The position numbers were made by a program, and so were the translations under genes. Shown piece after piece: positions 5,873 through 25,772 of a stretch of 64,000 bases of DNA. The DNA comes from a virus, in the IMG/VR virus record IMGVR_UViG_3300005529_000030, positions 1 to 64,000 of that record; one strand, 5' to 3'. Below the pieces are notes generated by a model, which ran no database searches, was not told the DNA's origin, and worked only from the letters and a program-made list of their open reading frames with translations. Within the stretch, counting starts at the first letter, position 1. The number at the start of each line of letters is the position of its first letter.

Positions 5873-5890
5873 TATTTGAGTTTTAAGCAG

Positions 5891-6908: not shown

Positions 6909-6911
6909 TTT

Positions 6912-6999: not shown

Positions 7000-7008
7000 A
7001 TTTTTAAT

Positions 7009-7087
7009 CGAGAATTAGAGAAGCCTGGTTGTTCTCGCCTGCTTCGGAAGCAGGAGGTCCAAGGTTCAAATCCTTGATTCTCGACCA
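7009..7087 (+). tRNA. tRNA-Pro(CGG)
   Basis: cctgc-ttCGGaa-gcagg, CCA. Confidence 0.85.
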
Positions 7088-7094
7088 ATTTCTG

Positions 7095-7128
7095 ACCCCG
7101 CTGTTTCAAACGGCGGGGTTTTGTATTT
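7095..7128 (+). terminator. rho-independent terminator closing the tRNA array
   Basis: ACCCCGCTGTT-TCA-AACGGCGGGGT followed by TTTGTATTT. Confidence 0.75.
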
Positions 7129-7142
7129 ATAGCGGAGAAAAC

Positions 7143-7520
7143 ATGACAGCAACACAACAGGCTTTGTATTCACAAAATAGTTCTCAGAACGGCTCGACGG
7201 TGGCTACTGCGTGGCCTCAAGTCACTCCCAATGCTGTTGGCGGGCAGAATTTGGATTTGCTTCAGATTGTGGATAATAATGGCGGTAAAGTTCTCTTAAA
7301 TGTTGATTATACAGGAACGGTTCATAACCCTGCATCTAACTTTACAAATGGCACCCGCATCGGACAGTTTTTAACCCACCTAAGTTCGACGGCCACTACC
7401 GCTCAGTTGTTCGCAGATGCTTTTTCTAATCCGTCAAAACTTGATATTTTGCAGGTCATAAACTCTGGCGGAAATATTCACTATTATTTGGATTATTTGG
7501 GTGTAGCTCACGGCAGTTAA
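7143..7520 (+). CDS. putative virion structural protein
   Basis: ATG 7143 after GGAGA; internal repeat LDLLQIV..GG / LDILQVI..GG. Confidence 0.65.
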   Translation: MTATQQALYSQNSSQNGSTVATAWPQVTPNAVGGQNLDLLQIVDNNGGKVLLNVDYTGTVHNPASNFTNGTRIGQFLTHLSSTATTAQLFADAFSNPSKLDILQVINSGGNIHYYLDYLGVAHGS

Positions 7521-7534
7521 TCTGTGAGGCTTTT

Positions 7535-7648
7535 ATGAGCCTTTTACGTTTTATAGCAACAAGGCTTTGCCCTCGTTGCGGACGTGTTTTAGAACAGCGC
7601 GAACACGGTCAAGAAGTTAAATGTGTATGCGGATGGATTTGGAAGTAA
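7535..7648 (+). CDS. 37-aa zinc-ribbon peptide
   Basis: GAGG RBS; CPRCG...CVCGW; directly abuts next ORF (below ORF-track cutoff). Confidence 0.5.
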   Translation: MSLLRFIATRLCPRCGRVLEQREHGQEVKCVCGWIWK

Positions 7649-8941
7649 ATGTCAACCGATAATAAATTGAGAGCTATCGCATTTTTGGGGCAGTATCAGG
7701 CCGCAGGCGTTAATTTACAAGACGGAGAAGTTTGTCCGTTGCAGGTGACGCAAGACGGCAAATTGATTACAAACGCTAGCAGTGCGGCTGTTACAAATGT
7801 AAATATATCTGAAATTGCGGGGTCGCCTGTTACAATATCAAATGCTCTGCCCGTAGAACTTTCGGATGGAACAAATTTATTTGGTAATCCTTCAAATCCC
7901 ATTAGTGAAAACATGGCCCAATGGGGCGGAGCCGCAGTAGGTGCGGCGTCGAATATTTCAGGAGATGGCTCACAGGTTGCCCCATTTTACAGGCCCATTC
8001 CGAGAAGATATGCCTCTATCTCTACTTCTACTCCTTTAGGAGCGGGAGCAAGTTTTGTGTCGGCTTGGGTGGATACTCAGGCAACTGGAGGTAATTGGGT
8101 TGTTTTGCAGCACCGTGCTGATGTTGCCAGCGGGACGGTTTCGATTCAGGGAACAAATGATACATCTGTTCCAAATTTTACAGCAACTCTTAATACTTTA
8201 GGACCTGGCGGAAGTGCGGTTCCAAACACTACTTATACTTGGGGAACCTATATTCCAACTAGGTATTGGCGTGTTAACTATATTAATGGCGGCAGTCCGC
8301 AAACCACATTTAATTTGACGGCCTTTGAGGCAACAGTTCCTCCAAATTTAGTAATTGGCGGAAATGGAAGCCAACCTCAAATTAGTCCAAATCAAGGCAC
8401 TTTATCAATTTCGACAACCGGCGCCATTGTCGTGGCAGCCGGAACGAATGTTTCTGGGGCCACGCCTGATAATATTAGAGAAGATGTTCAAAATTCAGGG
8501 GGCGCGGCCCGCCCTATGGGTTCGGCGCAAATGCTTTTACAATCCGCAGTTGGAACTCCCACTTGGATTGAAGCCCGAACGCCTAGTACATTTAAGACCG
8601 CAATCGCCACGGCGGCAGGAAATACCGCTCTTTGGACTCCAACAGCCGGAAAGAAATTTCGTTTGATGCGATTGGTTTTTCAGCTTACTGGAAATGCGGC
8701 GCAAGCCGCAGCAGGCATATTAACAATAGATTTACGAGACAATGTAACTTCAACAAATATCACTTTTAGTGCGTTTGTTCCGAGTACTGGCGGAATAACA
8801 TTTACTGATGACCATTATACGTATCTTGACCTTGGTAATGGAATTTTATCGGCAGCGGCTAACAATGTTTTGAACATTAATCTTAGCGCCGCTCTTACAT
8901 CAGGGCATGTTCGTATTATTGCAATGGGAACAGAGGAATAA
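7649..8941 (+). CDS. putative virion structural / receptor-binding protein
   Basis: 430 aa, G/S/T/A/N-rich beta-type composition. Confidence 0.65.
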   Translation: MSTDNKLRAIAFLGQYQAAGVNLQDGEVCPLQVTQDGKLITNASSAAVTNVNISEIAGSPVTISNALPVELSDGTNLFGNPSNPISENMAQWGGAAVGAASNISGDGSQVAPFYRPIPRRYASISTSTPLGAGASFVSAWVDTQATGGNWVVLQHRADVASGTVSIQGTNDTSVPNFTATLNTLGPGGSAVPNTTYTWGTYIPTRYWRVNYINGGSPQTTFNLTAFEATVPPNLVIGGNGSQPQISPNQGTLSISTTGAIVVAAGTNVSGATPDNIREDVQNSGGAARPMGSAQMLLQSAVGTPTWIEARTPSTFKTAIATAAGNTALWTPTAGKKFRLMRLVFQLTGNAAQAAAGILTIDLRDNVTSTNITFSAFVPSTGGITFTDDHYTYLDLGNGILSAAANNVLNINLSAALTSGHVRIIAMGTEE

Positions 8942-8943
8942 TA

Positions 8944-9216
8944 ATGGCTACACATACATATGTAGTTAGTTCGGCTTCTTATGTTCCTTTGAACGACCCT
9001 AATGCGGACCCTCTAGTAACTATCGTGGGTACTGTAGACGGTGTGGATGTTACAGTTCAAATTTGGTTGAGTGCCATAAAACAGGCGGCGCAATCGGGCG
9101 GTATGGCAGCCGTAAAAAATTTAATTGCGCCAATTATGTTAAATCAGGCACTTATTAATAATCCGCCTCCGCCGCAGCAGCCAGTTCAATTACCAACCGG
9201 AACTTTTGTTCAATAA
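8944..9216 (+). CDS. hypothetical structural protein
   Basis: Operon spacing, RBS. Confidence 0.6.
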   Translation: MATHTYVVSSASYVPLNDPNADPLVTIVGTVDGVDVTVQIWLSAIKQAAQSGGMAAVKNLIAPIMLNQALINNPPPPQQPVQLPTGTFVQ

Positions 9217-9228
9217 AGAGGATTTATT

Positions 9229-9609
9229 ATGGCTATATCACAAGTGAATATGTCAACTCCAACGAATCAGTTTGTATTCACTGATTCCGTGATGGGAAAT
9301 TCTCCCGATGGAGTTAAAGCATCTAGTGCGGTTTTGTATGGGGTTCGCGCCGATAATTCGGCTAACGGAACTCCCGTTTATGTGAAATTGTATAATGCGA
9401 CTTCAGGAAGCGTTGTTGTGGGCACTACTGCGCCCGATGAAATTATTTATGTCCCAGCCAACTCAGTTGTAACTCGTACATATTTTACTGGCGCTTCGGT
9501 TGGAGTGACTTTTGCAACGGCCCTTACGGCGGCTTGTGTAACTTCGGGAGGAACGGCTGGAACTACATCGCCAGCCCTTTCCGTGTCCGTTTCTATTACA
9601 TACGCATAA
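9229..9609 (+). CDS. putative virion structural protein
   Basis: AGAGGA RBS; YVKLYN...VGTTAPD small jelly-roll-like pattern. Confidence 0.6.
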   Translation: MAISQVNMSTPTNQFVFTDSVMGNSPDGVKASSAVLYGVRADNSANGTPVYVKLYNATSGSVVVGTTAPDEIIYVPANSVVTRTYFTGASVGVTFATALTAACVTSGGTAGTTSPALSVSVSITYA

Positions 9610-9777
9610 TTATTCTTTCGGTTTAACCGAAGAAAATCAACTGTCTTTAAACATTGAGCACTTAGACAGTGTGCTTTAGATTATGCCCATTTAGGGCATT
9701 TTCTATTAAAGCGGCAGGGAGCGAACATCGTAACTCGAATATCGTAGCCTTGTTCGTATATAAAGGAGAAAAACAAA

Positions 9778-10413
9778 ATGGGTGTAATTAAATCGTATCT
9801 TATTAACGGCGGCAACCCCGTAACTGTTGGCGGAGTAGGAACGGCGATTAAGTATTTCGCTAACGTTCCCGGCGCGGCCAATTGGAACAGCGGAGTCAGC
9901 GGAGTTAATGCTGGAGTGAGCGGAGCGCAGACTCAGGGTCAAACTCCAAGTTCTACCAGCAATGCCGGAGGTTTGCAGGTTCCGGGTAATAACGAGTTGA
10001 ACGGCCAATTGTTCCGTGTTACGGCATCTGGAAATATTTTATTCGGTGCGGGCGAAGCTTCTACAACTGGTAAGGTTGGGTTGTATTTGAGCAACGTTGC
10101 AGCCGGAGTTGCTCCTAACTATCAGACAATTCTTGAAGAGACTATTACAAACCAGGCTCAGGACGGAGTTTTCTATCCTTGGACAATTGATGTCTATATG
10201 CAGGGAGACACAAGTTCGGGCTTGTTGCAGTTCTACAAGAATGCGTGGAGCATGATTAACGGCACTGCCACATCGGCGGCTGCTGGTACCCCGATTAGCG
10301 GTATTAGTTTTGCAACCGACCCCGCTTTCGTATTGGTAGTAGGCGTTACATTCGGAGCATCAAACTCTGGAAATAGCGCAAATATGTACCAATTCCAAGT
10401 AAGTTTGCCATAA
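9778..10413 (+). CDS. putative virion structural protein
   Basis: AAGGAG RBS; G/A/S/T-rich 211 aa. Confidence 0.65.
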   Translation: MGVIKSYLINGGNPVTVGGVGTAIKYFANVPGAANWNSGVSGVNAGVSGAQTQGQTPSSTSNAGGLQVPGNNELNGQLFRVTASGNILFGAGEASTTGKVGLYLSNVAAGVAPNYQTILEETITNQAQDGVFYPWTIDVYMQGDTSSGLLQFYKNAWSMINGTATSAAAGTPISGISFATDPAFVLVVGVTFGASNSGNSANMYQFQVSLP

Positions 10414-10426
10414 AAAGTTAGAGACT

Positions 10427-10460
10427 GACGGGGCGCACGGATGAAACGCGCCCCTCGTCA
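10427..10460 (+). terminator. GC-rich hairpin after structural gene
   Basis: TGACGGGGCGC...GCGCCCCTCGTCA; weak U-tail. Confidence 0.4.
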
Positions 10461-10525
10461 TCTAGTCTGTGGAATCCAGAACAGGATGCGCGTGATAGTC
10501 GCGCCAAATTAAACGGGACTTAATT

Positions 10526-10762
10526 ATGGCAGACGAACAGAAACAGTTACGCATAGACGTAACAAACGAAACGGCGTATAAGGTTGGGGTTGTTCAAATG
10601 TTGCAATTACTAGACGACCGAACAGCCTGTTTAGCCGAAATGAAAAAGAAAGTAGATAGGCACGAAACAATCGTTCAGGTTGGGAAATGGGCGTCTATTC
10701 CAATTTTGGGGCTTTTTAATTTAGCAATTAAAAGCATACTTCATAAATTGGGTTGGGGATAA
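10526..10762 (+). CDS. coiled-coil + C-terminal TM small membrane protein
   Basis: Charged N-terminus, single hydrophobic helix. Confidence 0.55.
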   Translation: MADEQKQLRIDVTNETAYKVGVVQMLQLLDDRTACLAEMKKKVDRHETIVQVGKWASIPILGLFNLAIKSILHKLGWG

Positions 10763-10771
10763 GGAGTGTTT

Positions 10772-10954
10772 ATGCCAGCGGTATCACGCGCACAGCAAGC
10801 GGCAATGGCCATTGCTGAACACGAACCAGAAAAATTATATGAACGAAATAAGGGGCTTTTAGAGATGTCTAAAAAGCAGTTGCACGATTTTGCGGCTACT
10901 TCTAGAAAGCATCTTCCTTCCTATGCTCATGCCAGAAAAAAGAGGAACGAATAA
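10772..10954 (+). CDS. DUF3008-like protein
   Basis: MPAVSRAQQ.A...MS..QL.DFAAT.RK.LP. Confidence 0.65.
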   Translation: MPAVSRAQQAAMAIAEHEPEKLYERNKGLLEMSKKQLHDFAATSRKHLPSYAHARKKRNE

Positions 10955-11274
10955 TGGCGGAAAAAAGTTGGCTGAAAAAGATTTCTGCCTTAAAAAGATT
11001 AATTTCTGAAGTAGGTCCTTTGTGGCCTAAAAGCACTCGTCTTTCTGGCTATGCCGAAAGCGGACCCTATCATTGCGAAGATTGCGTTTATTTGAAAGGA
11101 AAGAAAGAAGGCGAAATTTTTGTGGATAAAGAGGGCCAAGGGCGCTGTATGCACCCCGTTGTTATAGCCGACCGAGAAACTAAAAAGGATAAGAATTTTC
11201 TTCCTATCGTTAATATACAAAAAGGCTGTTGTGAATTTGTGGAGCCGCCCGAAGATGAGGAAGAATCGGAGTAA
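10954..11274 (+). CDS. HiPIP-like Cys-motif protein
   Basis: C-E-D-C...GRC...I-x3-GCC-E-F spacing like high-potential Fe-S proteins. Confidence 0.5.
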   Translation: MAEKSWLKKISALKRLISEVGPLWPKSTRLSGYAESGPYHCEDCVYLKGKKEGEIFVDKEGQGRCMHPVVIADRETKKDKNFLPIVNIQKGCCEFVEPPEDEEESE

Positions 11275-11279
11275 TTTAT

Positions 11280-11519
11280 ATGCATGCTAAACATGGATTT
11301 ACAAGAACTACCATAGAACATCATGCGGACGGCAGTTCGACGATAGTACATGAACGCCACGATGGTGAGAAGAAAACTCATGCGGTAGCAGATTTGGATG
11401 GAGTGCACGACTCTTTGGAAGACCATCTAAGAGTTCCCGGCGATGAGGAAGAAGCAATGGAAGAAAAAATCCATCCGGGAATTCATGAAGAGATAAAAGA
11501 AGGTTTAAAACATGGCTAA
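11280..11519 (+). CDS. His/acid-rich small protein (paralog 1)
   Basis: HG..RT.IEHH.DGS....H...HAVA.LD..HDS..DHL. Confidence 0.65.
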   Translation: MHAKHGFTRTTIEHHADGSSTIVHERHDGEKKTHAVADLDGVHDSLEDHLRVPGDEEEAMEEKIHPGIHEEIKEGLKHG

Positions 11520-11802
11520 GAAAAAACACGCTGGCCACGGCTATCATCGTACTCATATTGAGCATCACCATGATGGCTCTGCTACGGTTCATCATGTGCA
11601 TGAAGACGGCCCAGAGCACGACAGAAAGCACGCAGTGGCTAATTTAGACAAAATACACGACAGTATTCAAGACCATTTGGGGCAACCGAATCCAGGGGAA
11701 GCGGAAGCCGACATGGGAAACCACGGCATTCCTGCGGAGCAAGCAACCGCAGCCGGAGTTCCTGTTGTGCCGTCCCAAACGCCTCAAATGCCCGGAGCAT
11801 AA
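11512..11802 (+). CDS. His-rich small protein (paralog 2)
   Basis: Same motif as upstream gene; overlapping stop/start. Confidence 0.65.
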   Translation: MAKKKHAGHGYHRTHIEHHHDGSATVHHVHEDGPEHDRKHAVANLDKIHDSIQDHLGQPNPGEAEADMGNHGIPAEQATAAGVPVVPSQTPQMPGA

Positions 11803-11804
11803 TC

Positions 11805-12005
11805 ATGGCAGATAAAGTTAAAAATCCTTCGTTGTACAGAGCAATGCATCATCTTCGTAAAGGTGGATTGCACAGAGCGTTGCACGTTCCCGAAGGCGAA
11901 CCGATTCCTGAGTCTAAACTAGAGGCGGCAACGCATTCGGAAAACGAGCACGTTCGGCACATGGCCAACTTTGCTAAAACAATGAAGGGGTTTAAAAAGG
12001 GATAA
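11805..12005 (+). CDS. small basic phage protein
   Basis: KGGLHRALHVPEGE.IP.SKL..A...A.FAKT pattern common near phage terminases. Confidence 0.6.
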   Translation: MADKVKNPSLYRAMHHLRKGGLHRALHVPEGEPIPESKLEAATHSENEHVRHMANFAKTMKGFKKG

Positions 12006-12007
12006 GC

Positions 12008-12268
12008 ATGTTTGAAAAATTAAAGATTGGATTTGTTGCATTAACCAATAGAAGCCTAGTGGCTCCAATTTTTAATTTGTTTTCTGGCCGATGCACTTTT
12101 TTTGCGATTGTTTTTACTGTGGTAGGAATCAAGCTCGCTTTAATTGGTAAATTAGATGCAAACTATGCTTTATTTGTAGGCGCAATTCAGTCATTGTTGG
12201 TTTTGCATTCATGGAAAGAGGATATTGCGGAACAAAACGAAATTAAACGTATGAAAAATTCATCCTAG
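12008..12268 (+). CDS. two-TM membrane protein, holin-like
   Basis: Two hydrophobic helices, charged C-terminus. Confidence 0.45.
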   Translation: MFEKLKIGFVALTNRSLVAPIFNLFSGRCTFFAIVFTVVGIKLALIGKLDANYALFVGAIQSLLVLHSWKEDIAEQNEIKRMKNSS

Positions 12269-12276
12269 AGGCAGAG

Positions 12277-12465
12277 ATGTGTAATGAGGAAGCCCTTAAA
12301 AAAGTTATAGGTATTTTGATGTCTCAACTCGAAGAAGAGCGTCAATTAAGGGAAGACCTCGTAAAGTTCTTGATAACGGGAAAATTTTTCATATCATCAA
12401 GAAAAATCATTTCTGAAAAAGATATAGAAAATAAAATTTTGGAGTTGTCGGGAGTCGGGTCGTAA
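12277..12465 (+). CDS. hypothetical protein
   Basis: Operon spacing. Confidence 0.5.
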   Translation: MCNEEALKKVIGILMSQLEEERQLREDLVKFLITGKFFISSRKIISEKDIENKILELSGVGS

Positions 12466-13071
12466 ATGGAAAAGACTGTAGCTTTCATAGTTCGTCATGG
12501 GTCAACCCGTCTTAACGATGAAAACAAATACAGAGGCCAATTGGATGTTCCATTAGACGAACGTGGAAAAAGAGAAGCTAAGGAAGTTGCAGAGTTTCTG
12601 AAAAATCAACCAATAGGACAAGCTTGGACTAGTGATTTAAGACGGGCAAAAGATACGGCAAAAGAAATTCTAAAGGGCCGAGGTTTAAAAGCTATTCCTA
12701 CGGAAAAATTGCGACCTTTGGATTCGGGAAAATTTGCGGGAAAGAGCAAAGACGAATATAAAGAACAGATGGAATATTATCACGAACATCCAGAAGAGAA
12801 AATTCCCGGCGGCGAATCTATTAATGGGGCCAATAATAGGATGAGAAAACCTCTTCTTAAAGCATTTCGCGCGGGATTAAGAGGAAAGCCTAGTCTTGTT
12901 TCGGCACATGCTAGTGTGATACACAGCGCGGGGCACTTGTTGCATAATAACCACAAAGCGGCTTTGGTGAAACCTGGAGGAGCCGTAAAAGTTATTTATG
13001 ATGGAGAGAAATTTAAAGCTCGCCCCATATTTAAAGCTAAGATGGAAGATGAGAAACATTATGCATCTTAA
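12466..13071 (+). CDS. histidine phosphatase (phosphoglycerate mutase family)
   Basis: VRHG, SDLRRA, PGGES, SAH motifs. Confidence 0.85.
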   Translation: MEKTVAFIVRHGSTRLNDENKYRGQLDVPLDERGKREAKEVAEFLKNQPIGQAWTSDLRRAKDTAKEILKGRGLKAIPTEKLRPLDSGKFAGKSKDEYKEQMEYYHEHPEEKIPGGESINGANNRMRKPLLKAFRAGLRGKPSLVSAHASVIHSAGHLLHNNHKAALVKPGGAVKVIYDGEKFKARPIFKAKMEDEKHYAS

Positions 13072-13082
13072 AGAGGTGACAC

Positions 13083-13340
13083 ATGGCAGCTCTCGATAAT
13101 ATAGCATCAAAATTGATGGAAGCAAAAGAAACTCTAAGAAAGGCAAAAGAGTGGGCACCGCCATTGAAGATTGGCACACCGATGGCTCCTAGTGTTCATC
13201 CTAGCTATGCCAACGCGGCCTATTCGGCTGTGAAAGACGCGGCAAGAAAAGCCCTGTCTTCACCGCAAACAGAAAAAGAAGCTAAAGACATAGCATCAGG
13301 AATAAATTGGAGATTGCAACAGCAAAAATCGGTGAAGTAG
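13083..13340 (+). CDS. hypothetical protein
   Basis: GAGGT RBS; precedes terminase. Confidence 0.55.
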   Translation: MAALDNIASKLMEAKETLRKAKEWAPPLKIGTPMAPSVHPSYANAAYSAVKDAARKALSSPQTEKEAKDIASGINWRLQQQKSVK

Positions 13341-13352
13341 AGAAGGTAAACA

Positions 13353-16121
13353 ATGCCTTTGGCGGGATTAGAAAAAGGTAAAAATAATTTTATTAATAAG
13401 CGTATAAACGACCAAAAAAGTTTTTGGCCAGGATACGTTAAAAAATGGGATGAAGAAAACGGCGGAAAAAGATTTCGTTCAGAGATAATGTCTTTGTCGG
13501 AACTTTGGAAGCTTTATTTGACGGGAGTTAGTACGGAGCTTTCAGCGGAAGAAGAAGCTCGTGGTAAAAAACCCGACAAGATAGACAGAATAAGTCAAGT
13601 TGTTCCTATAAAAGCATTTGAGTTACCGGGCCGATTTCACGAGCCATACATAACCGAAGACGGGACTAGAATTCACAAGGAAGGTTGGGGATACCTTCAT
13701 TTCGACCAATGGTTATATGCGCGAGACCAAGCCAGAAAGGATTTGTTTTGGCTGTGTAAAGAAGTCTTCAGTATGGACTTGTATGAAGATGTACATAGGG
13801 TTGTATGCAATCAGTTTGTGAGTAAAAATTTCGACGGTGTTTATGAAGAAAATTACTCTCTAAGGGACTTTCATCGCGCTTTGTCTAATCAGAGTCGCGT
13901 TCCTACGATTTGGGCGGAAACGAAGCCATATGTGAATGGATATTTTCCTGAAAAAACTCTTGACGATTATGGAAATTATATAAGAGACCCAATAGAAGAA
14001 ACGAAACAAACAAATTTTGCTAAAACGATGATTCTTTTAGACCCTCGTGGGTTTTTTAAATCATCTATAGACGTTGCTGATTGTATTCAGTGGATTATTA
14101 ATTGCCCCGACATAAGAATTTTGATTGTTAGCGGAGTTAATAAACTAGCGGCTCAATTTATGGTGGGCGTTAAGCAAGGGCCGAAAGGAAAGTCATTCTA
14201 TCTTCCGAGAGGGGTTCCGCCGTCTCCGTTTCATTATTTATTTCCTGAATTTGTAGTTCGCGGAGTGGATGGAACTTCAAAAGAAGATTTCCGCGTTAAC
14301 GAAAATATAAAAAAACATCTAAGTTTGGACCCAACTCTCGGAATTATTTCAGTGGGTTCGTCTTTATCGGGTTTTCACTGCGACGTTTTGAAGTTTGACG
14401 ATATAGTTACAGACGATAACTGTCTAACAGAAGATGCGCGAGAAGCCATTCTTTTGAAAGCAGACGGCGCGGTCAATTTGTTAATGGATTGGGGTTGGCA
14501 CGATATTATCGGAACTAGATATTATCCCGATGATTATTACGGCCAAACAGAGGCAACTCACAAGAAAGACCCTGAGATGTTCAATCTTAAATTCTTTCAA
14601 AGGGCCTGTTGGACCGTCAAGGAAGAGTTTAAGGACGTAGAAGCTAGAAGTTTATATGACCTTACGGAAGATATGGTCACGTTGACTTTTCCTCAGAAGC
14701 ACCCTAAAGGTCCGCATTATTCTTGGTTGGAGCTAAGAGCCAAACTTAAGAATGAAAAAAGTTTTAGATGTTTTCCTGCTGGGTCAAAAGTTCTCATGGG
14801 TGATTGGACTGAGAAAGCAATAGAGGATATTAGGCCCGGTGACGAAATAATAGGTTTTGATAGCGGCTTAAAGAAGGCTGTTGTTACTCATGTTCACGAG
14901 AAGCGAGATTTAGTTTCCAAGTTTCTAACAGAACAGGGGCGTACTATCTTCTCGACAAGAGACCATAAATTTCTTCGACCTAATACAGGAAAAAAGAAAG
15001 TTTATGGACCTTTGAAAATAGGAACTAAAGTTGTTTCTGTTTATAGCCCGTCAGGAGAATTGCTTTCCAAACAATGCAGTCGAGATATGGATTGGCTTAG
15101 AGGCGGCTCATCTATAGATAAAATTATTTCTATAGAAGATTTGAACGAGCAGCCTGTTTACACTCTCACGACAACTACAGGAAATTATGTTTGCCAAGGT
15201 TTTGCTGTGGCTAATTGTCAGCAGCTTAATCAGCCTGTTTGGGGCGAAGAATCCACAATTAGTTTCGACAGGCCGTTATTGGAATCTAGGAAAACTAAAA
15301 CTTTATCGGAAGTTTTGTCTGTGCCCGGATATGTTTACGGCGCCATTGATTTGGCAAAAGAGAATAAACAGTTTTCCGATTATACCGCTCTAGCTATAGG
15401 AAAAGTGTACCAAGAAGGAGTCGGTATAATTCGTCCGGATGAAAACGGTAATCTTCCAGAAAGACCCGACGGAAAATGGGTCATGGTCATATTGGACGTG
15501 GAATTCGGAAAGTGGTCTCAAACTGAGATAGCTAACCGAATTGCTAAAATGAACGATAAATGGCGACCTAAAAGATGGTACGGAGAAGACCTTGGCGGAT
15601 TGCAGACCTTCAAAGAAAAAATAATAGAAGTGTCAAAAACAACTTATGGTCATTGGCCGTATATTCCGTGGGTTACACCCGATAACAACGAAAATTCAAA
15701 GAGAAATAGAATTAAGGGCGTTGAAATTCTTCTTAGAGCGTCAAGACTATATTTTCTAATTGCGCCTTGGAATGTGGATGTTTTTGAACAGCTTGAAAAT
15801 TACAAAGGTCAAAAAAGCACTCGTTATTCTAAAGACGATGTGCCCGATGTAATTTCCCTTCTAACGAAGTTTATTCCGTCTTTGGTCCCTCTATCGAAAA
15901 GAGAGATGGAGCAAGTGGCAATTCAAAGAGAGACGGAATACAAAGAATTGCTTAGAAGAGAAATAAAGAAAGTTGTTTTCGGGGACGACGGCGGGGGTTT
16001 CGGAGTGAATAATATTAATAGAATATGGACAGAAGTGGAGTCTCCCAAAGAAGACACTAATCGGGGTCCGATGGCGGACATTAGCCGAAAATTTTTCGGC
16101 GGTAATGGAATGCGAGCATGA
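13353..16121 (+). CDS. terL: terminase large subunit (intein-containing)
   Basis: Walker A PRGFFKS, Walker B DVLKFDD, GTRY coupling motif, RNase H-like GAIDLA..SDYTA and DDVPD. Confidence 0.9.
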   Translation: MPLAGLEKGKNNFINKRINDQKSFWPGYVKKWDEENGGKRFRSEIMSLSELWKLYLTGVSTELSAEEEARGKKPDKIDRISQVVPIKAFELPGRFHEPYITEDGTRIHKEGWGYLHFDQWLYARDQARKDLFWLCKEVFSMDLYEDVHRVVCNQFVSKNFDGVYEENYSLRDFHRALSNQSRVPTIWAETKPYVNGYFPEKTLDDYGNYIRDPIEETKQTNFAKTMILLDPRGFFKSSIDVADCIQWIINCPDIRILIVSGVNKLAAQFMVGVKQGPKGKSFYLPRGVPPSPFHYLFPEFVVRGVDGTSKEDFRVNENIKKHLSLDPTLGIISVGSSLSGFHCDVLKFDDIVTDDNCLTEDAREAILLKADGAVNLLMDWGWHDIIGTRYYPDDYYGQTEATHKKDPEMFNLKFFQRACWTVKEEFKDVEARSLYDLTEDMVTLTFPQKHPKGPHYSWLELRAKLKNEKSFRCFPAGSKVLMGDWTEKAIEDIRPGDEIIGFDSGLKKAVVTHVHEKRDLVSKFLTEQGRTIFSTRDHKFLRPNTGKKKVYGPLKIGTKVVSVYSPSGELLSKQCSRDMDWLRGGSSIDKIISIEDLNEQPVYTLTTTTGNYVCQGFAVANCQQLNQPVWGEESTISFDRPLLESRKTKTLSEVLSVPGYVYGAIDLAKENKQFSDYTALAIGKVYQEGVGIIRPDENGNLPERPDGKWVMVILDVEFGKWSQTEIANRIAKMNDKWRPKRWYGEDLGGLQTFKEKIIEVSKTTYGHWPYIPWVTPDNNENSKRNRIKGVEILLRASRLYFLIAPWNVDVFEQLENYKGQKSTRYSKDDVPDVISLLTKFIPSLVPLSKREMEQVAIQRETEYKELLRREIKKVVFGDDGGGFGVNNINRIWTEVESPKEDTNRGPMADISRKFFGGNGMRA
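14769..15215 (+). mobile_element. mini-intein (149 aa) in terminase
   Basis: Starts CFPAGSKV, TRDHKF block B, ends VYTLTT..GNY..GFAVAN/C; no full endonuclease. Confidence 0.85.
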
Positions 16122-18226
16122 CAGAACCGTTAAACGAGCACGCGCATAATGTATTAGAACAAAGAGTGATTACACCTGTAGCAGATATTACTTCTGCGGA
16201 AATACACAAAGATAAAGAAACAGGAACGTATCAGTTTTCAGATAGGGCCGCATTAAAATTGGTTCTAGATGATGCTTCTTTGGCTGATAATTATGCGAAT
16301 ATCAATCAGTGGGCATCGCAATGGGCGCAATCATTAATTCTCCTTCAGAGTCCGCAATCAGCGGCGGCTTTCGATGGAGTATTTATGAGTTCCGTTCCGA
16401 AGTTTACTCTATCGAATCATATAAGCAGTATTGTGCCTAAAATTATGGAGGGTTTGTTTTATGAAGACCCTCCTTTTTTACTTAGACCCAGACCAGGAAC
16501 TAAACAGGAACTAGTAAGAGCTAAAACTGCCTTATTTTCCGCCCAATTGTGGGACATGAAGTTTGAGGAAGAGGTTGAGGCGGGTTTAGAGCAAATGGCC
16601 CTATTCGGAACTTGCATATTTAAATGGGGATATTTAGAGCGAGATGACACTGTTAAAAAATACAGGAGAAAATCGGAAAAAGTTCCCCTTACTAGTGGTT
16701 TATTAAATGATTTAATTGATACTCCAGATAGTGACGATTATGAGATATTGACCGAGGTCGTTAAGATAAGTCGCCCATGGTTTAAATGTACTGACATTCG
16801 TACAGTTTTGGTTGACCCCGGCTGTCGTGTTGGAGATATACGAAAGGCGAAGTGGGTAATTTATCGTGACTACGCCACATTTGATGATTTAAATGCTCTT
16901 AGAGAAGTTCCCGGCTACGACATCCCCGATGAAGAAGCTTTGAAATCATTCTTTCTATCGAATGAAATGTCGGGGCCGGATAATATTACCATGACAATTC
17001 CAGAAGGCATGCGTGGATATTTACAGCAAGCCTTGCCTAGGAATTTCAGAACTTCTGCCGACCATTTACAGAACCCAATGGAAATTTTAGAGCGTTGGGA
17101 TGCTGATAAAGTTATTGTCGTATTGTCATTCGGCGGAAAAAATATTCTTATCCGAAACGAGCCTAATCCTTACGGAAAAATTCCGTTTTATAGTGCAAAT
17201 TGGCGTAATTTAGTTGATTCTTTTTACGGTCAGGGATTGGGACAATTAATAGGAGCCGAGCAAGTTGTAGAACAGGGTGTGACAAATCTTTCTCTTGATT
17301 TACTAGCTTATGGTTTGCAGCCAACGGCGGTTAGAAAGAAAGGGTTCAATGTTCCTACCCAAATGGTTAGATGGAAGCAGGGTGGAATTATTGACGTTGA
17401 TGACGACGTAGATAAAGCATTTAAGTTCTTGCAAATGCCGAATGTCCCTGGTGAGGCTTGGGCATTTATTCAGCAAGCTCAGGGTACCGCTCAACAAACA
17501 TCGGGCGCAAACGAACAGGTTATGATGGGCGCAGGCAGCGCAGGAATTAAAACAACAGGAATGCGTACTGCGACAGGAGCTTCGGCCATCATTCAGGCTA
17601 ATGCGTCTAGATTGGATGGTCCTAGCGGTCGTTTTGTAAGACAAGTATTTGTTCCTTGGTTGTATCAGATGGATGAACTTAATAATGACCTTCTTCCTAC
17701 GTCTGTTTTAAGAAGAGTTTTAGGCGAAGAGTTGGGCAATGAATACATGGTTGACCATGTAGAATTTAGAAACGCTAGATTTGAATATGAAGTTTTGGCT
17801 GGCGGTCATTTGGGGGCTAAAAAAGAAATGGCCCAATTTTTGCCGATTGTCGTTCAGCTTTTGAACAATCCTACATTTGTGAAAAACGTAAACGATGCGG
17901 GTTATCAATTTAATGCGGCGGCAATCTTTAAGGCTTTTGCTGATGCGGCAGGATGGAAGTTTAGTCAGGACTTCTTAGAAAAGATGACGCCGGAGCAACA
18001 GCAGAAATATGAAGCAAATTCTCCTGCTGCTTTGCAAGTAGCACAAGCGCAGATAGCGCAACAATTACAGACTCAGAAATTTGAGCAAGAAAAAGAACTA
18101 GAAGACCAACGTCAGCTTGGCAAGGCGGGAGCCGAAGTTCTTCGTCAAGCCACCGAACACAGTCTTCAAAGTGAAATAGGCAGAGAACCGCCGCCGGGGA
18201 GCTACGGTTTTGAAACAGCACTTTAA
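16118..18226 (+). CDS. portal protein
   Basis: 702 aa after terL; FGTCIFK, FYGQGL, RTATGA motifs. Confidence 0.85.
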   Translation: MTEPLNEHAHNVLEQRVITPVADITSAEIHKDKETGTYQFSDRAALKLVLDDASLADNYANINQWASQWAQSLILLQSPQSAAAFDGVFMSSVPKFTLSNHISSIVPKIMEGLFYEDPPFLLRPRPGTKQELVRAKTALFSAQLWDMKFEEEVEAGLEQMALFGTCIFKWGYLERDDTVKKYRRKSEKVPLTSGLLNDLIDTPDSDDYEILTEVVKISRPWFKCTDIRTVLVDPGCRVGDIRKAKWVIYRDYATFDDLNALREVPGYDIPDEEALKSFFLSNEMSGPDNITMTIPEGMRGYLQQALPRNFRTSADHLQNPMEILERWDADKVIVVLSFGGKNILIRNEPNPYGKIPFYSANWRNLVDSFYGQGLGQLIGAEQVVEQGVTNLSLDLLAYGLQPTAVRKKGFNVPTQMVRWKQGGIIDVDDDVDKAFKFLQMPNVPGEAWAFIQQAQGTAQQTSGANEQVMMGAGSAGIKTTGMRTATGASAIIQANASRLDGPSGRFVRQVFVPWLYQMDELNNDLLPTSVLRRVLGEELGNEYMVDHVEFRNARFEYEVLAGGHLGAKKEMAQFLPIVVQLLNNPTFVKNVNDAGYQFNAAAIFKAFADAAGWKFSQDFLEKMTPEQQQKYEANSPAALQVAQAQIAQQLQTQKFEQEKELEDQRQLGKAGAEVLRQATEHSLQSEIGREPPPGSYGFETAL

Positions 18227-18240
18227 AAAAGGATTAAACA

Positions 18241-18567
18241 ATGAATCAAACCCCGTTATTAGCCGATGAACTTACGGCTGCTCAACGTGCTGCATTAGCA
18301 TCGCTGATACAACATCCTGGATGGGCTGTTGTGGAAGAAATGCACATGGCTGCGTGTAGGAGAGCGACGGAAGATGTTTTAAAGCAAGACCCCGGATTGG
18401 AGGGCGCGGAAAAGAAAATTGTCGCCCTTCAACTACGGGCTAGAGAACGAAATGAATTTTCTCTTTTAATTCTTGGCTCTGTTAATTGGCACGCGAAAGC
18501 GTTAGCCGTATTAGAGCAAGAGAAAGAGATAAAGATGGACAATCCAATAATAAAAGGACTCAAATAA
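18241..18567 (+). CDS. hypothetical protein between portal and scaffold
   Basis: L..HPGW motif, synteny. Confidence 0.6.
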   Translation: MNQTPLLADELTAAQRAALASLIQHPGWAVVEEMHMAACRRATEDVLKQDPGLEGAEKKIVALQLRARERNEFSLLILGSVNWHAKALAVLEQEKEIKMDNPIIKGLK

Positions 18568-19758
18568 ATGACAGAACAACTTGCTCTTGTCCCAGAGAAT
18601 ATAACTTGGGATATGGTGAACGCATGGGACGGAAAAACCATGCGAAAATATATGTCTATTCCTGAGTACAGAGACGCAATTACCAAAGTAGTTGCATCTA
18701 GGTCGTATCAAGAAATTCAAGATTTGGCCGTTAAACAAGAGGAAACGGCATCAGAAGTGAATATTGAAAATTCGGATATTTCTACTAAAGATGCTTTGGC
18801 GGCTCCCGCAGCATTGGAAGATGCTGCTTCTAGTAAAACTACTACAGACTCAGCCCCAATTGCCGTGCCTGAACCTCCAAAAAAGATTATAGTGGAGTAT
18901 CAGGTCAGAGATGAAGATGGAAATCCTATTGGTAGGCCCACGCACTTAGAAGCCTACACCGAAGAAGAAATGCGAAAAAAGATAATCGAGGCGCATGTTC
19001 AGGCGACTCGCGCATTTCATCGTTTAAAGAAACAGAAAGTACAAAGCATTCAAGAAATATCTAAACAAGACGAACCGTCTTCTACTTCCCCTCGAACTAT
19101 GACTGACGAAGAGTTGATGGCCACGTTAAAAGATTTAAGGTCAGACGACCCTCAAATTCAATTGGCGGCCCATAAAAAGTTGATGCAATCTTATGAAGAA
19201 AAGGCCAAAGCAGAACGGGAAGCCAAGGAAGCCGAGCAGCGCGAATTTGAAAGGCAGAAGCAAGTAAGTATTGAGTTTTTGAAAAGACACAAACACGATT
19301 TTAATAATTGTCAAGCCAACGTGGATTTAATAGGCGAGTATTTTAAGGAAAATAAACTTCCTTGGACGCTTGATAATTTGGAAGTAGCTTTTATAGCTCT
19401 TGAAGATAGGCTGGCACCTGTAGCGACGCCAGCGGTAGAGGTATTACCAGAGCCTAATCCGCCTGTTCCTCAACCAACAGCTACGACAACAGCGGCGGCG
19501 GTTGTGCAGCCGACACCGACTGTGCCTGTCGCTCCTCCGCAGCCAATTAATTCGGTTGCGGTTCCGAGACCAGGAGTCAATGGGGGTATTGTTCCGGGAC
19601 AAACTTCAGCACCGCGCCCGTCGCAAAAACCTCAAGGACTAACGATGGAAGAAATCCTTTCTTGGGATGCTCAAACCATGCGAGCGAAAATGCGTTCGCC
19701 GCTACGTGCAGAAATAGAGCGCGTAACAATGGAAGCGCGACTAAGAAGAGGACGGTAA
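18568..19758 (+). CDS. putative capsid scaffolding protein
   Basis: Coiled-coil + Pro-rich linker, repeated W-D-x-x-TMR ends, position before capsid gene. Confidence 0.6.
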   Translation: MTEQLALVPENITWDMVNAWDGKTMRKYMSIPEYRDAITKVVASRSYQEIQDLAVKQEETASEVNIENSDISTKDALAAPAALEDAASSKTTTDSAPIAVPEPPKKIIVEYQVRDEDGNPIGRPTHLEAYTEEEMRKKIIEAHVQATRAFHRLKKQKVQSIQEISKQDEPSSTSPRTMTDEELMATLKDLRSDDPQIQLAAHKKLMQSYEEKAKAEREAKEAEQREFERQKQVSIEFLKRHKHDFNNCQANVDLIGEYFKENKLPWTLDNLEVAFIALEDRLAPVATPAVEVLPEPNPPVPQPTATTTAAAVVQPTPTVPVAPPQPINSVAVPRPGVNGGIVPGQTSAPRPSQKPQGLTMEEILSWDAQTMRAKMRSPLRAEIERVTMEARLRRGR

Positions 19759-19803
19759 TCCTAAGCGGCGCGTAACGCCGACTATAGCACGAGGGAACTT
19801 CAC

Positions 19804-22800
19804 ATGGCTGGAGGCCCAAACCCGGCAATTGCTAATGTCGGGAATATATTAACGGCTCAAAGCATCCTCAAGTAAGGGGCTGTTTCGAGGGAAACAGAAA
19901 TCTTCTCTGATTGACTTGGAACCTGAAATGGCGACAAGGCGGAAGCGCAAGCACCGTGAGAGACTAAGCGAGAAGACACCTAAAAGGTGATACGATAGTC
20001 CGTTCTAATAGGAAAGAAAACTGTTAGGGAAAAACGCTTTGATAAGGAGCTAATCCCGAACTTATTTTTATAGAGTGAAATGCCGAAATTTGATAATCTT
20101 ACTGGAGTGAAATTCGGACGCCTGACGGTTATAAGCAGAGCACCAGACGCCGTTTCTAAATCTGGTTTCGTATATACAAGATGGAATTGTTTGTGCGATT
20201 GCGGAAAAGAGAAAACGATATATGCTGGTTCTTTAAAAAGAGGAGTAACCGTTTCTTGCGGTTGCCAACTTAAACAAGTTTGGCGACGAATAGGTCTTTC
20301 CAGTATCAAACACGGCGGCAGTTCAAAAGATGCGTCGGTAGATAAAAAAATACAATTTCAAATTTTACAACATATCCGTCAGCGAGCCAGAGCCAACGGA
20401 TATGAAACTGATTTAGAATTATCGGATATACCTGAAGTTCCTGATGTTTGTCCGGTTCTCGGAATTAAACTTAAAAAAGGAAAAGGTCCTCTATCTGATT
20501 TTTCTGTATCTATTGATAAAATCAATCCTAATTTACCGTATCTTAAAAAATACAAAAATAATTTGCGATTGATTTCATATAGAGCTAATCGTATTAAAAA
20601 CGACGCTACTATTGATGAATTGGAAAAAATCATTCTATATATAAAAATGAGCCGCTCTGAAGAGAGCGAGAATCTTCTCTGATTGACTTGAAACCTGAAA
20701 TGGCAACAAGGCGGAAACCGAAAAGGTGCCGTGAGAGACTAAGCGAGAAGACGCCGAAACGGCGATGCGATAGTCCGCTCTAACAAGAATAAAATTGTTA
20801 GTTAACAACAGGAAAGGGAGAAACGGATGCATTTGTTGTTGCCGCCGAGCGTCGTGTTCAACCGAATAACACTGGTATTAACCGCCAGTTTTTTCAGTAC
20901 AATACGCTTGTAGGTGACACAACCCAAGCTGGTGATGGTGTTATCGGAGCACCAGAGTTCATTGGTCAGATTTCATCTCCGGCTCAACTGGGCGAATGGA
21001 ATAACTATACCAACTTTAGCGCGTTTGTTGTTGCGAGCGCACTAGATGATTTGGTTGGAAACAGCGCAGTTGAACTTGGGTAAAACTTGATGCCCAAGTA
21101 AAATCACGTTATATCAGATTAGGTCTTTTTCTAAAAAGATGAGTCTGAGACATTGTATATTGCCTTAAGGCAGAAGAGGAACTAGAAGTGCAAAGAAAAT
21201 CTTGGCCGTATGTGGCCGGAATATTGGATGCCGAAGGAACTATTGTTATTGGCGAAACAAACGGTGGTTTTTATTCTAAAATAAAAATTTCCAACACCAA
21301 CAAAAAGTTAATGAAGTGGTTGGTTCAAAATTTTGGAAATGTTTTTTATAAAAACCTAAATTCAAGAAGTAATAGAAGTGTTTTATATGAATGGAATTGT
21401 TTAGCCAATCAACAAGAGGCTTTTCTTTTAGGCGTTTTGCCGTTTTTATTGGTTAAGAAACCTCAAGCTTTGACTTTGCTTGAGTTCAGAAGAACCGAAT
21501 CGTTGGAAGAAAAAAAGAAGTTGTGCGACAGAATAAAACAGCAGAATCAGCGTCTTATTGAGAATAAAACTTCTTTTATTAATTCTCATAACAAAGACCG
21601 TTTTAAATATGCTGCCGGATATATGGATGGAGACGGTGGTTTTTATTTCGGAGATTCGAGCCATACAAGAATATATCTAACGAGCATAGATTTTATAATT
21701 ATAAAATGGTTTTTAGCTAATTTTGGCGGTAAATTCTATAAATACAATTCTTCTAATGAAAATCATTCTGACTACTTTAGGTGGGTTCTTAGCGGACGGA
21801 AAAATAAAAAGTTGTTTTTGCTTGGAACTATCCCGTACATGATTTTGAAGAGGGAGCAAGCAAAAAATCTTTTACAAATTATAGATTCTAGTTCTGTTCA
21901 AACGACTAATACACGTGAGATTTCCTCGTCGGAAATCAAGAAAGAGTCTTAACTTATTGGTGACAATAAGAGCTTAATTTCTGTGAAGAAAATTAACTAA
22001 AAACATTTAATCAGGCTGGCCAAAGCATCTCTCAGTTATACGCTGCCGTTGCAGACAGCGCAGCAACTGTAGATTCTCAGGTAAACCAAAGCAGCTTGTT
22101 AACCTCTCCATTTGTTTTGGATTTGGCTACGTTACGTGAATTGAAACAGCAGTTAGTTTCAAAGAACGTACTACCAAACCGAAATGGAAGGTTCGCAGGA
22201 GTTATTTCGCCTAACGTTTTGGGCGATATTTTCAACTCGACCACAGTGAACAACTCCATCAACTAAGGTGGACATTTAACGAAAGTTAAATTGAATAAAT
22301 CAGTTCTAATTGACTCGAACCCTGGGATGGGAACGAGGGCCAAGCGAGACGACGCAGGCTGAGAGAACAAACGAACTGACTCCCAATAGGGAGATGCAAT
22401 GTTCCGTTCTTGTGAGAATCATTCTTTTGATTGGAGAAAAATTCGGTCGTTTACTAGTTATCAAAAAAGCGTTTTCCAAACATGGACGCTCTCGTTGGAT
22501 TTGTCAGTGCGATTGTGGTAAAACTTATAACGTTTTAGGTCACAACCTTCGCAAGGGAAAAACTAAAAGTTGTGGATGCTTGCGAAAAGAGTCGGCACGT
22601 AATTTAATCAGTTTCGCCAAGGAAAAAAACTTTTTAAGTCCTGGCGAAGCGGCCTTTAACGTTATGTATTATACGTACAAACAGCACGCAAATGAACGAG
22701 GATTGGATTTTAGTTTGGAAAAAGATAGTTTTCGGCATTTAACACAAATGAATTGTTATTATTGCGGAGACGAGCCGAAGGATTTTTTCAAGCCTAAAGC

Positions 22801-23412
22801 TCCTAATGGCGGATACCTAAGTAACGGAATAGACCGAAAAGATAACGCGATGGGATATACAATTGAAAATTGTGTTCCATGTTGTCGAATCTGCAATCAA
22901 ATGAAAAGTAATAAATCATACGAAGATTTTATTACTCGTTGTTGGAAAATCACAAGAGGCCACAAGCCCTCTACTTTGGTAGAGTAACAACAAGCGTTGA
23001 CCTGTGGAAATATGCAAATATGGATAAGTTCGATAAAATCGCTGGCGCAGACCAGAAGATGGACATCGAACTTCCCGGCACTTCTATCGTATTACGACAG
23101 ACGCCTTTCGTAACTACGACGCCTAATTATTCTGGAACGACAAGCACCGCATATCGTACCTATATCTTCGGACAGTACGCAATGATTGGTGTTTGGCAGA
23201 ATGTACCAGGCGATACCGATTTGGGAGACGGAGATTGGCGCACTATTGACTGCAAGGTAGTTGAGAATGCACCAGCGTCTGCGTTTGACCCGGTTGGTAC
23301 AATCGGAAGCTGGTGTTCTTATAGATTCCACCAGACGGTAACTCTACCGCCTGCTCGTGGGGCAAACACTCAGCGCCTTCGCTTCATAGATAGCGTACCT
23401 GCTATTCAGTAG
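19804..23412 (+). CDS. major capsid protein (N4-gp56-like), 5 exons: join(19804..19868,20037..20063,20813..21081,22010..22259,22995..23412), 342 aa
   Basis: Exons sum to 1029 nt in one frame: MAGGPNP...SIL|FDKELIPNL|KGETDAFVVAAERRVQP...ELG|YQAGQS...NNSI|VDLWKY...FDPVGTIGSWCSY; GAGGG RBS; position after scaffold. Confidence 0.85.
19869..20036 (+). ncRNA. group I intron 1 (168 nt, no ORF)
   Basis: P1 CCU|C..GGGG with U-G; P3 TCTTCTC/GAGAAGA; P7 GACTA/TAGTC; terminal G. Confidence 0.85.
20064..20812 (+). mobile_element. group I intron 2 with HNH endonuclease
   Basis: Core ~20668-20812 closely matches intron 1 core; terminal G restores L-K-G-E frame. Confidence 0.85.
20080..20682 (+). CDS. intron-encoded HNH homing endonuclease
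   Basis: KFGRLTV..WNCLCDCG..SCGC DNA-binding module; CPVLG..SIDKI.P..Y..N...IS.RAN.IK. Confidence 0.85.
   Translation: MPKFDNLTGVKFGRLTVISRAPDAVSKSGFVYTRWNCLCDCGKEKTIYAGSLKRGVTVSCGCQLKQVWRRIGLSSIKHGGSSKDASVDKKIQFQILQHIRQRARANGYETDLELSDIPEVPDVCPVLGIKLKKGKGPLSDFSVSIDKINPNLPYLKKYKNNLRLISYRANRIKNDATIDELEKIILYIKMSRSEESENLL
21082..22009 (+). mobile_element. group I intron 3 with LAGLIDADG endonuclease
   Basis: P1 ACTTGGGU/GCCCAAGT; P10 CTTGAT/ATCAGG; P3 TCACGT/ACGTGA; P7 GACT/AGTC. Confidence 0.8.
21188..21952 (+). CDS. double-motif LAGLIDADG homing endonuclease
   Basis: YVAGILDAEG and YAAGYMDGDG. Confidence 0.9.
   Translation: MQRKSWPYVAGILDAEGTIVIGETNGGFYSKIKISNTNKKLMKWLVQNFGNVFYKNLNSRSNRSVLYEWNCLANQQEAFLLGVLPFLLVKKPQALTLLEFRRTESLEEKKKLCDRIKQQNQRLIENKTSFINSHNKDRFKYAAGYMDGDGGFYFGDSSHTRIYLTSIDFIIIKWFLANFGGKFYKYNSSNENHSDYFRWVLSGRKNKKLFLLGTIPYMILKREQAKNLLQIIDSSSVQTTNTREISSSEIKKES
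22260..22994 (+). mobile_element. group I intron 4 with HNH endonuclease in P9
   Basis: P1 TCCAU|C..GGTGGA; P3 TCAGTTC/GAACTGA; P7 GAACA/TGTTC; P9 CTTGTG/CACAAG; terminal G. Confidence 0.85.
22310..22987 (+). CDS. intron-encoded HNH homing endonuclease (true start probably ~22394-22427)
   Basis: KFGRL..WICQCDCG..KSCGC; CYYCG..NGIDRKDN..GYT.ENCVPCC..CN.MK. Confidence 0.85.
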   Translation: MTRTLGWERGPSETTQAERTNELTPNREMQCSVLVRIILLIGEKFGRLLVIKKAFSKHGRSRWICQCDCGKTYNVLGHNLRKGKTKSCGCLRKESARNLISFAKEKNFLSPGEAAFNVMYYTYKQHANERGLDFSLEKDSFRHLTQMNCYYCGDEPKDFFKPKAPNGGYLSNGIDRKDNAMGYTIENCVPCCRICNQMKSNKSYEDFITRCWKITRGHKPSTLVE

Positions 23413-23462
23413 TAACTTCTTTTTTTTCAATAACTTACAGACGAGTTAGTTACTCGTCTTAG

Positions 23463-23500
23463 TCGAGGGGCGCTCTTATGACGCGCTCCTCGGCGTTTTT
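23463..23500 (+). terminator. rho-independent terminator after capsid gene
   Basis: TCGAGGGGCGC...GCGCTCCTCGG followed by TTTTT. Confidence 0.6.
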
Positions 23501-23514
23501 CATAGGGAATAATA

Positions 23515-23973
23515 ATGCAATTACCCGATTCTCTTAGTTTAGCTGGGTTAAAGCCGGGAACCAAGGAATATGCTCGAATGACGGGTCGTAGATATTACTA
23601 TCGTCACCGTGACAAGGAAAAGGCCCGCACTAAAATTTGGCGATTGTCTAATCCCGATAAATATAAAAAATGGGTTGAGAAAAACAGAATTAAATTAATA
23701 CAAGCGGCTCGGCGACATGACCATCAAGTTACCTCTGAATGGTTTGAATTAAAATTGAAACAACAAAACGGTCGGTGTGCCATTTGTAATAAAATTCCAA
23801 AAAGATTTGATATAGACCACAACCATTCCTGTTGTCAAGGAAGGAAAAGTTGTCATAAATGTAATCGTGGTTTGCTATGTCGAAGTTGTAATACTTTTAT
23901 AGGGTTGGCAAAAGAATCTACAGATTTTCTTTTGTCCGCTATTAATTATCTACAACAGTATAATAAGGATTGA
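23515..23973 (+). CDS. endonuclease VII-type free-standing nuclease
   Basis: Q.GRCAIC..DIDHNH.CC....C..C.RGLLC..CN..IG. Confidence 0.85.
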   Translation: MQLPDSLSLAGLKPGTKEYARMTGRRYYYRHRDKEKARTKIWRLSNPDKYKKWVEKNRIKLIQAARRHDHQVTSEWFELKLKQQNGRCAICNKIPKRFDIDHNHSCCQGRKSCHKCNRGLLCRSCNTFIGLAKESTDFLLSAINYLQQYNKD

Positions 23974-25187: not shown

Positions 25188-25253
25188 AACATGGGGGCTG
25201 ATTTACGTCAGCCCCATATTTCACAGATAAATTTTAAGTCGAGTTGGCTAAAA

Positions 25254-25772
25254 ATGGAAATTACGGATTTGGAAAAAAGAGTGGCTCTTTTAGAGCAGAA
25301 AGTAAAGAGCTATGAAAAAGATTCTCGTCGCGGTTTGGCAGGTCCTATTGGACCTCGCGGACCTCAGGGACCTCAGGGACCTCAAGGCGAGCGAGGAATC
25401 CAAGGAGATAAAGGCGACACAGGTCCGCAAGGTCCGCAAGGTCCGAAAGGTGACACAGGTCCGCAAGGTCCGAAAGGCGACACAGGTCCGCAAGGTCCGC
25501 AAGGTCCGAAAGGCGATAAAGGCGATAGAGGCGACATAGGTCCGCAAGGTCCGAAAGGCGACATAGGTCCACAAGGTCCGAAAGGCGATAAAGGCGATAG
25601 AGGCGACATAGGTCCACAAGGTCCGAAAGGCGATAAGGGAGAACCAGGAAGGGACGGCAAAGACGGACTTTCGGGGCCGAGAGGGCCAGCGGGAAACATT
25701 GAAGCCGCAGTTCAGGCGGCGATTGATGCCGTTATGAAACTTTTGAAAGAAAAAGGGTTGATAAATGGCTAA
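25254..25772 (+). CDS. collagen-like triple-helix repeat protein
   Basis: About 40 Gly-X-Y triplets ([15 protein letters not shown]) flanked by short coiled coils. Confidence 0.85.
25350..25650 (+). repeat. tandem 9/27-bp repeats encoding collagen
   Basis: GGTCCGCAA / GGTCCGAAAGGCGAC units. Confidence 0.85.

Follow-up and report, generated by a model that had tools for sequence, protein, structure and literature searches.

The window analysed here, a stretch of 64,000 nt, is a portion of a 72.6-kb phage-like contig with a head-gene block. Its major capsid gene (19804 to 23412) comes in five pieces with four group I introns between them, and all exons, introns and intron elements described below lie on the plus strand. 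The excision registers of the gene were enumerated for colinearity with the uninterrupted capsid protein of locus L001, which was placed on the window by tblastn. The results assigned exon 1 to positions 19804–19868, intron 1 to 19869–20036 (168 nt, without an ORF), exon 2 to 20037–20063 (27 nt), intron 2 to 20064–20812, exon 3, the 5′ exon of intron 3, to 20813–21081 (3′ end GAA CTT GGG T), intron 3 to 21082–22009 (928 nt), exon 4 to 22010–22259, intron 4 to 22260–22994, and exon 5 to 22995–23412. Introns 1, 2 and 4 each have two tied registers, one of which combines a U just before the intron (position −1) with a terminal G, whereas the same script returned no register of this kind for intron 3.

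Several further features of the locus were recorded. Intron 1 and the 3′ part of intron 2 (20640–20812) are 87% identical, so that two copies of one ribozyme flank the mini-exon 20037–20063, which encodes FDKELIPNL. An HNH-type endonuclease gene lies inside intron 2 (20080–20682) and a second one inside intron 4 (22310–22987); the register of intron 4 is the canonical one with U at −1 and a terminal G, and an intron is present at the same junction in L033/L034. Comparison of L018 to L043 revealed gaps of about 200–250 nt in the last capsid exon of many contigs, at residues of about 89–121 of the exon-5 query, and more gaps in related contigs at residue 59 of exon 3. The capsid gene seems to be an intron hot-spot. 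Elsewhere in the window, 27 tRNA genes occupy positions 11–7084, and an ORF with long collagen-like G-P-Q/G-P-K-G-D repeats is located downstream of the head genes (25191–25772). Searches of GenBank phages gave no match, either by megablast with 19700–23500 or with the exon 4 protein as the query.

The ends of intron 3 are marked by two adjoining pairings of its guide sequence, for which an earlier sequence-only reading of this DNA had given the same coordinates and partners. P1 joins the exon strand ACTTGGGT (21074–21081) to GCCCAAGT (21092–21099) over 8 bp and terminates in a U21081·G21092 wobble at the 5′ splice site. The part of the guide that pairs with the 3′ exon, CTTGAT (21086–21091), forms P10 with ATCAGG, the first six bases of exon 4 (22010–22015), through six contiguous pairs out of six, one of them G·U, and abuts P1. 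Removal of 21082–22009 would create GGG TAT CAG, which reads ELG-Y-QAGQS as the sequence-only reading had proposed, and the predicted ligated junction is GGGUAUCAGG. This join was compared with 44 related capsid loci, of which L037 gave no coverage. The junction is uninterrupted in all 43 homologs that cover it; 36 of these read ELGYQAGQS and the other seven are near variants of equal length. The pattern EL[GAS]Y[QR].G runs across the junction in every one of the 43, with both the length and the Y kept, down to the most distant homolog, that of Tunturiibacter phage Tunturi_3 (32% identity), so the proposed join held up in the alignment to intronless homologs.

Two registers for intron 3 tied at the top of the comparison with L001, namely 21082–22009 and 21083–22010, and each has a terminal A. 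A G-ending register of the same length is impossible, because in-frame TAA triplets at 21081–21083 and 21994–21996, read from the sequence, bound the choices. In both colinear registers, the predicted intron 3 therefore lacks the near-universal terminal G of group I introns and ends in A instead.

Judged from its sequence and predicted fold, intron 3 is nevertheless a genuine group I intron. An unconstrained minimum free energy (MFE) fold of all 955 nt recovered P1, P3, P4, P5, P6, P8, P9 and P9.1, with z = −5.1. In this fold, P3 pairs UCACGU (21104–21109) with ACGUGA (21913–21918), P4 (21114–21120/21142–21148) encloses P5 (21123–21129/21134–21140) within 21114–21148, P6 pairs GAACUAG (21179–21185) with CUAGUUC (21888–21894), and P8 is a GAUUUCC/GGAAAUC hairpin at 21919–21937. 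P9 (21953–21970) and P9.1 (21974–21996) are hairpins with GUGA loops, on which the fold and the covariation in the family agree. P7 consists of GACU (21904–21907), which holds the G-C pair of the guanosine site next to a bulged C21903, and its partner AGUC (21945–21948). Alignment of the relatives placed J8/7, AAGAAAG, followed by the P7 3′ strand AGUCU, at 21938–21949. According to nhmmer, intron 3 aligns with introns at another capsid-gene site in L018 (E = 3.8e-36), L033/L034 and L036. Inspection by eye shows covariation of P3, P4 and P6 in four relatives, the changes in P3 being seen in L018, L034 and L036. The P7 motif GACU/AGUC is common to more than 100 relatives, and in L099 it aligns to P7 of Rfam RF00028. 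This ORF-less relative scored 55 bits with RF00028 against a threshold of 50, while L117 and L049 stayed below the threshold, and the alignment of L099 assigned P3, P4, P6, P7, P8 and P9 as in our analysis. For the window, Rfam gave no group I match at the gathering threshold, nor any at E up to 10 over 19400–23700, a silence that is expected from the presence of a 765-nt gene within loop L6.

The gene in L6 (21188–21952) encodes a two-domain LAGLIDADG homing endonuclease of 254 aa, and its 3′ end overlaps P6′, P7, P3′, P8 and P7′. Residues 7–107 and 133–234 of the protein each align to I-CreI (best PDB match E = 7e-5), and it resembles both I-CreI and I-MsoI. Its score against Pfam LAGLIDADG_3 was 21.6 bits, slightly below the cut-off of 22.5, and it matched PHROG 5046, which is labelled HNH, in two stretches with E = 8e-31. 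As a query for related loci, the endonuclease protein retrieved none from the viral contigs and none from the metagenome contigs. A loose pattern of intron tail and exon 4 hit 120 stretches on the viral contigs, which were rejected as chance matches, none having a capsid match. A stricter version gave 0 matches on the metagenome contigs, and no second intron was thus found at the exact intron 3 site.

Relatives of intron 3 at other sites were collected with a search motif that spans P7, P3′, P8, J8/7 and P7′ and fixes part of P7. The motif is present in at least 117 viral contigs, and the matches listed, together with the window, make up 131 instances, 97 of them unique. Among these unique instances from the matches listed, 34 were dropped because the tail motif, the P3 partner or enough flank was absent, and 63 were left. 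For each of the 63, uninterrupted homolog ORFs spanning the junction set the intron length, and the possible registers were scored; no terminal G was presumed, and ties were settled by P9.0 (described below) and then by U at −1. This procedure replaced a brute-force scoring by guide-sequence pairing plus any open frame, which was noisy, produced false registers and left many introns unsolved. Homolog colinearity solved 51 of the 63 introns, with at least five homolog ORFs each, and left 12 unsolved.

The solved set, from the matches listed, comprises 37 introns ending in G, 12 ending in A and two ending in U, counts that are not independent, as the family members are related and the 12 A introns are spread over about six or seven insertion sites. 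The terminal A that the sequence-only reading had seen in intron 3 is therefore not confined to the window but recurs in 12 of the 51 solved introns. All 12 have U at −1 and a P9.0, none of them has a colinear G register, and in five (the window, L056, L057, L062 and L075) every tie-break leads to A. The count of A introns is best given as 12 to 14, since L138 and L157, which are G by most homologs, fit an A register better when judged by the homologs nearest to them. The six or seven insertion sites fall in two capsid clades, one of which shows 78% identity to the Tunturi_3 capsid protein over 132 residues. The two U calls, L050 and L139, are atypical and doubtful.

The 5′ splice site also varies in the family, and nine of the 37 G introns carry A instead of U before the intron. 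At the site EWN/NY, the seven unique members L018, L033/L034, L036, L047, L061, L117 and L124 have an A at −1 whose P1 partner is U; the colinear register is unique in each case and backed by 38 uninterrupted homolog ORFs, and all of them end in G. The lack of a U·G wobble at the 5′ splice site, as in these members, is unusual in its own right. An A at −1 was also called, doubtfully, for L138 and L157.

P9.0 is formed by bases 2 and 3 after P7′ with the two bases just before the last intron nucleotide (omega). Across 19 members aligned without gaps, P9.0 is 84% paired, P9 100% and P9.1 98%, and compensatory changes occur in both pairs of P9.0 (AU to GC in two rows, AU to UA in three). When the partners were slid by one to three columns in this alignment, the pairing fell to 27%–51%. 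Omega occupies a single column of the 19 rows, with 13 G and 6 A. In the window, P9.0 pairs A21951-A21952 with U22007-U22008, which makes A22009 the omega nucleotide, an assignment based on colinearity, the contigs of the sequencing runs and the family alignment.

The tied register yields the same message and places both splice sites one base downstream, with the 5′ site after A21082 (pairing with U21091), omega at A22010, and P9.0 between UAA (21950–21952) and UUA (22007–22009). It scores equal to the main register, and P10 keeps five contiguous pairs in it. The pairing of A at −1 with U is also what is found in the nearest relatives of the window, L018, L047 and L061, each in a unique register with 38 homolog ORFs. 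Moreover, in A4 only the window has U, not G, right after P7′, and by reading of the sequence a 3-bp shifted P9.0 is possible there. This register would, however, be non-canonical at both ends although the canonical U21081·G21092 wobble exists, and it departs from the U(−1) register present in 12 of 12 omega-A relatives as well as from the family P9.0, which begins one base after P7′ and so matches 22009. We regard the shifted register as unlikely, and in either case the intron would end in A.

Even less credit can be given to the idea that a G-to-A change has disabled the site, so that either splicing uses a nearby G, after G22015 (ELG-S-GQS), or the capsid gene no longer functions. In model ribozymes, mutants in which omega-G is replaced by A are blocked or use cryptic sites, and the site after G22015 is in frame. 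The sequence-only reading had supposed that this site would break P10 and either the frame or the residues; the frame is in fact kept, but P10 is broken, P9.0 with it, and YQA is replaced by S with the loss of two residues. Nearly all uninterrupted homologs conserve the two residues that would be deleted, and 43 of 43 retain YQA or a same-length equivalent. Metagenomes of different studies contained the same DNA at depths of 32 and 71, the register enumeration showed the remaining exons and introns of the capsid gene to be intact, and 11 more members of the family have a terminal A and no possible G register, all of which speaks against a disabling change.

Nothing was found in favour of a sequencing or assembly error at 22009, and its likelihood is next to negligible, as contigs of four runs, each from a different study (two soil studies of 2017, one mine study of 2024 and one soil study of 2020; depths at 22009 of 7.8, 32, 71 and about 3 in the four runs) show 0 differences and 0 joints over 19700–23500 and read A at this position, and, while three of the runs may be the window's own source, a contig (21758–22054) of the run not flagged as a possible source spans it as well. 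Among the sequencing runs listed for this DNA, none is an RNA run. A22009 looks like a natural, tolerated variant rather than an error.

What distinguishes the A from the G introns was sought in the core and in P10. No difference between A and G members was seen in P7, J6/7 and J8/7, part of P7 being fixed by the search motif. The identity of P7 and J8/7 in both kinds of members implies that the pocket of the A introns is the canonical guanosine pocket. P10 gave a different picture: with L050, L139, L072, L138 and L157 set aside, a P10 abutting P1 with at least three pairs was found in 12 of 12 A introns (range 3–6 bp, at least 4 in 11 of the 12) versus eight of 34 G introns, a contrast that is suggestive and not a statistic, since the rows are related. 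The previous 49-row version of the comparison agreed with this result, and the best P10 helix of the A introns begins at the first exon base. A longer P10 in A introns was considered and rejected, because at any offset the values were 4.75 (A) versus 4.68 (G), with a shuffle mean near 3.5. The contrast between A and G introns lies in the register of P10 alone, not in its length.

The persistence of the A introns and the switching between A and G were assessed from exons and endonucleases. Five A introns at the site AGV/IHPF share 70–88% mutual identity over aligned columns, and the exon differences among these five loci fall for the most part on third codon positions (in one case 11, 6 and 25 at positions 1, 2 and 3), which implies that the capsid genes are under purifying selection. 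The sequence-only reading had suggested a slow intron that might be rate-limiting for capsid synthesis; this idea gains no specific support, as the occurrence of omega-A in 12 of 51 relatives, together with these third-position differences, is an argument for the tolerance of omega-A and not one for a rate-limiting role. On a tree of 45 intron endonucleases, from which the ORF-less introns, L050, L139 and L072 were omitted and in which L138 and L157 were counted as A, nine changes of the A/G label are required, and at least three of the changes are forced by well-supported branches. Matched pairs are also available, such as L141 (A) and L148 (G), which share one site, and L062 (A) and L033 (G), which have near-identical cores.

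The best explanation overall, with a probability of about 0.75, is that intron 3 is a mobile LAGLIDADG-bearing group I intron whose family is common in the capsid genes of soil phages, that it ends in A22009, and that its 3′ site is held by P9.0 and P10. Splicing at the intron 3 junction, as predicted from these pairings, would start with guanosine-initiated cleavage at U21081. This first step should be ordinary, given the normal P1 wobble, the core P3–P8 and a guanosine pocket with the usual G-C pair. Two pairings would then mainly set the 3′ splice site, P9.0 (A21951-A21952/U22007-U22008) and the 6-bp P10, the latter stacking gaplessly on P1. As P10 extends P1 without a gap, the guide amounts to one continuous complement of the ligated exons. 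In the second step, A22009 would take the place of omega-G in the guanosine pocket, with weaker but sufficient binding, and exon ligation would restore GGG-UAU-CAG (ELGYQAGQS). In the Tetrahymena G414A mutant, omega A reportedly docks poorly and slows exon ligation. Because the change from omega-G to A is said to cripple exon ligation in Tetrahymena, the tolerance seen here is a point of interest. Going beyond intron 3, we tentatively raise a broader and decidedly less secure proposal: omega in this phage intron family might accept either purine, docking of the guanine might be dispensable if P9.0 and a P10 continuing P1 hold the 3′ site, and G and A might toggle repeatedly as the introns move between capsid sites.

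Omega-A occurs in about a quarter of the solved members of an abundant phage family, with the guanosine pocket unchanged. If the introns of this family splice, their second step depends less on guanine recognition than the model ribozymes suggest, and the natural A/G pairs offer a direct route to what compensates for omega-A. There is a practical side as well, in that gene callers and intron mappers demanding a terminal G will misplace the exon junctions of these capsid genes.

Group I introns are still said to have a universally conserved terminal G, and databases and finders assume canonical ends (PMC11835236, PMC8146996). A 2025 intron database gives terminal G as the most frequent end and requires U at −1 (PMC11835236), and an IStron survey describes G at −1 in one group (PMC4227781). 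Omega-G is near-universal and not absolute. Omega-A as such is already known, and intron 3 joins a rare group. In the main texts of the full-text literature, no omega-A intron was found reported from a phage. As far as our searches of the full-text literature show, there is also no earlier description of an A/G alternation throughout a family or of its link to an abutting P10.

The sequence-only reading had named omega-A precedents from eukaryotic and organellar introns. The mitochondrial ND5-717 intron of hexacorals (corals and sea anemones) is indeed one, and its description reports omega-A and splicing in vivo, with 21 junction reads (PMC8146996). It resembles intron 3 in its terminal omega-A. 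ND5-717, however, is mitochondrial, vertically inherited and obligatory and carries host genes in P8, whereas intron 3 appears to be mobile, contains a homing endonuclease gene and resides in a phage.

Among phage introns, that of T4 nrdD (sunY) has DNA matching the J8/7-P7′-P9 core of L053 with 97% identity over 33 nt, which covers only a quarter of the query. The T4 nrdD intron and the present family are both phage introns with homing endonuclease genes. The T4 nrdD intron reportedly ends in G, and no extra helices between P7 and P3′ were seen in the window intron.

The precedents also extend beyond eukaryotes and organelles. The 23S rRNA intron of Coxiella burnetii is reported to be a group I intron without the canonical omega-G (Raghavan et al. 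2007, J Bacteriol 189:6572, cited in PMC11270868). It is said to be a natural omega-A intron. The Coxiella intron resembles intron 3 as a self-splicing group I intron of the bacterial world whose last base is not G, self-splicing being a prediction for intron 3. The Coxiella intron reportedly is a single element and belongs to the rRNA of a bacterium with an intracellular life, whereas intron 3 lies in a protein gene of a phage and belongs to a family that alternates between A and G.
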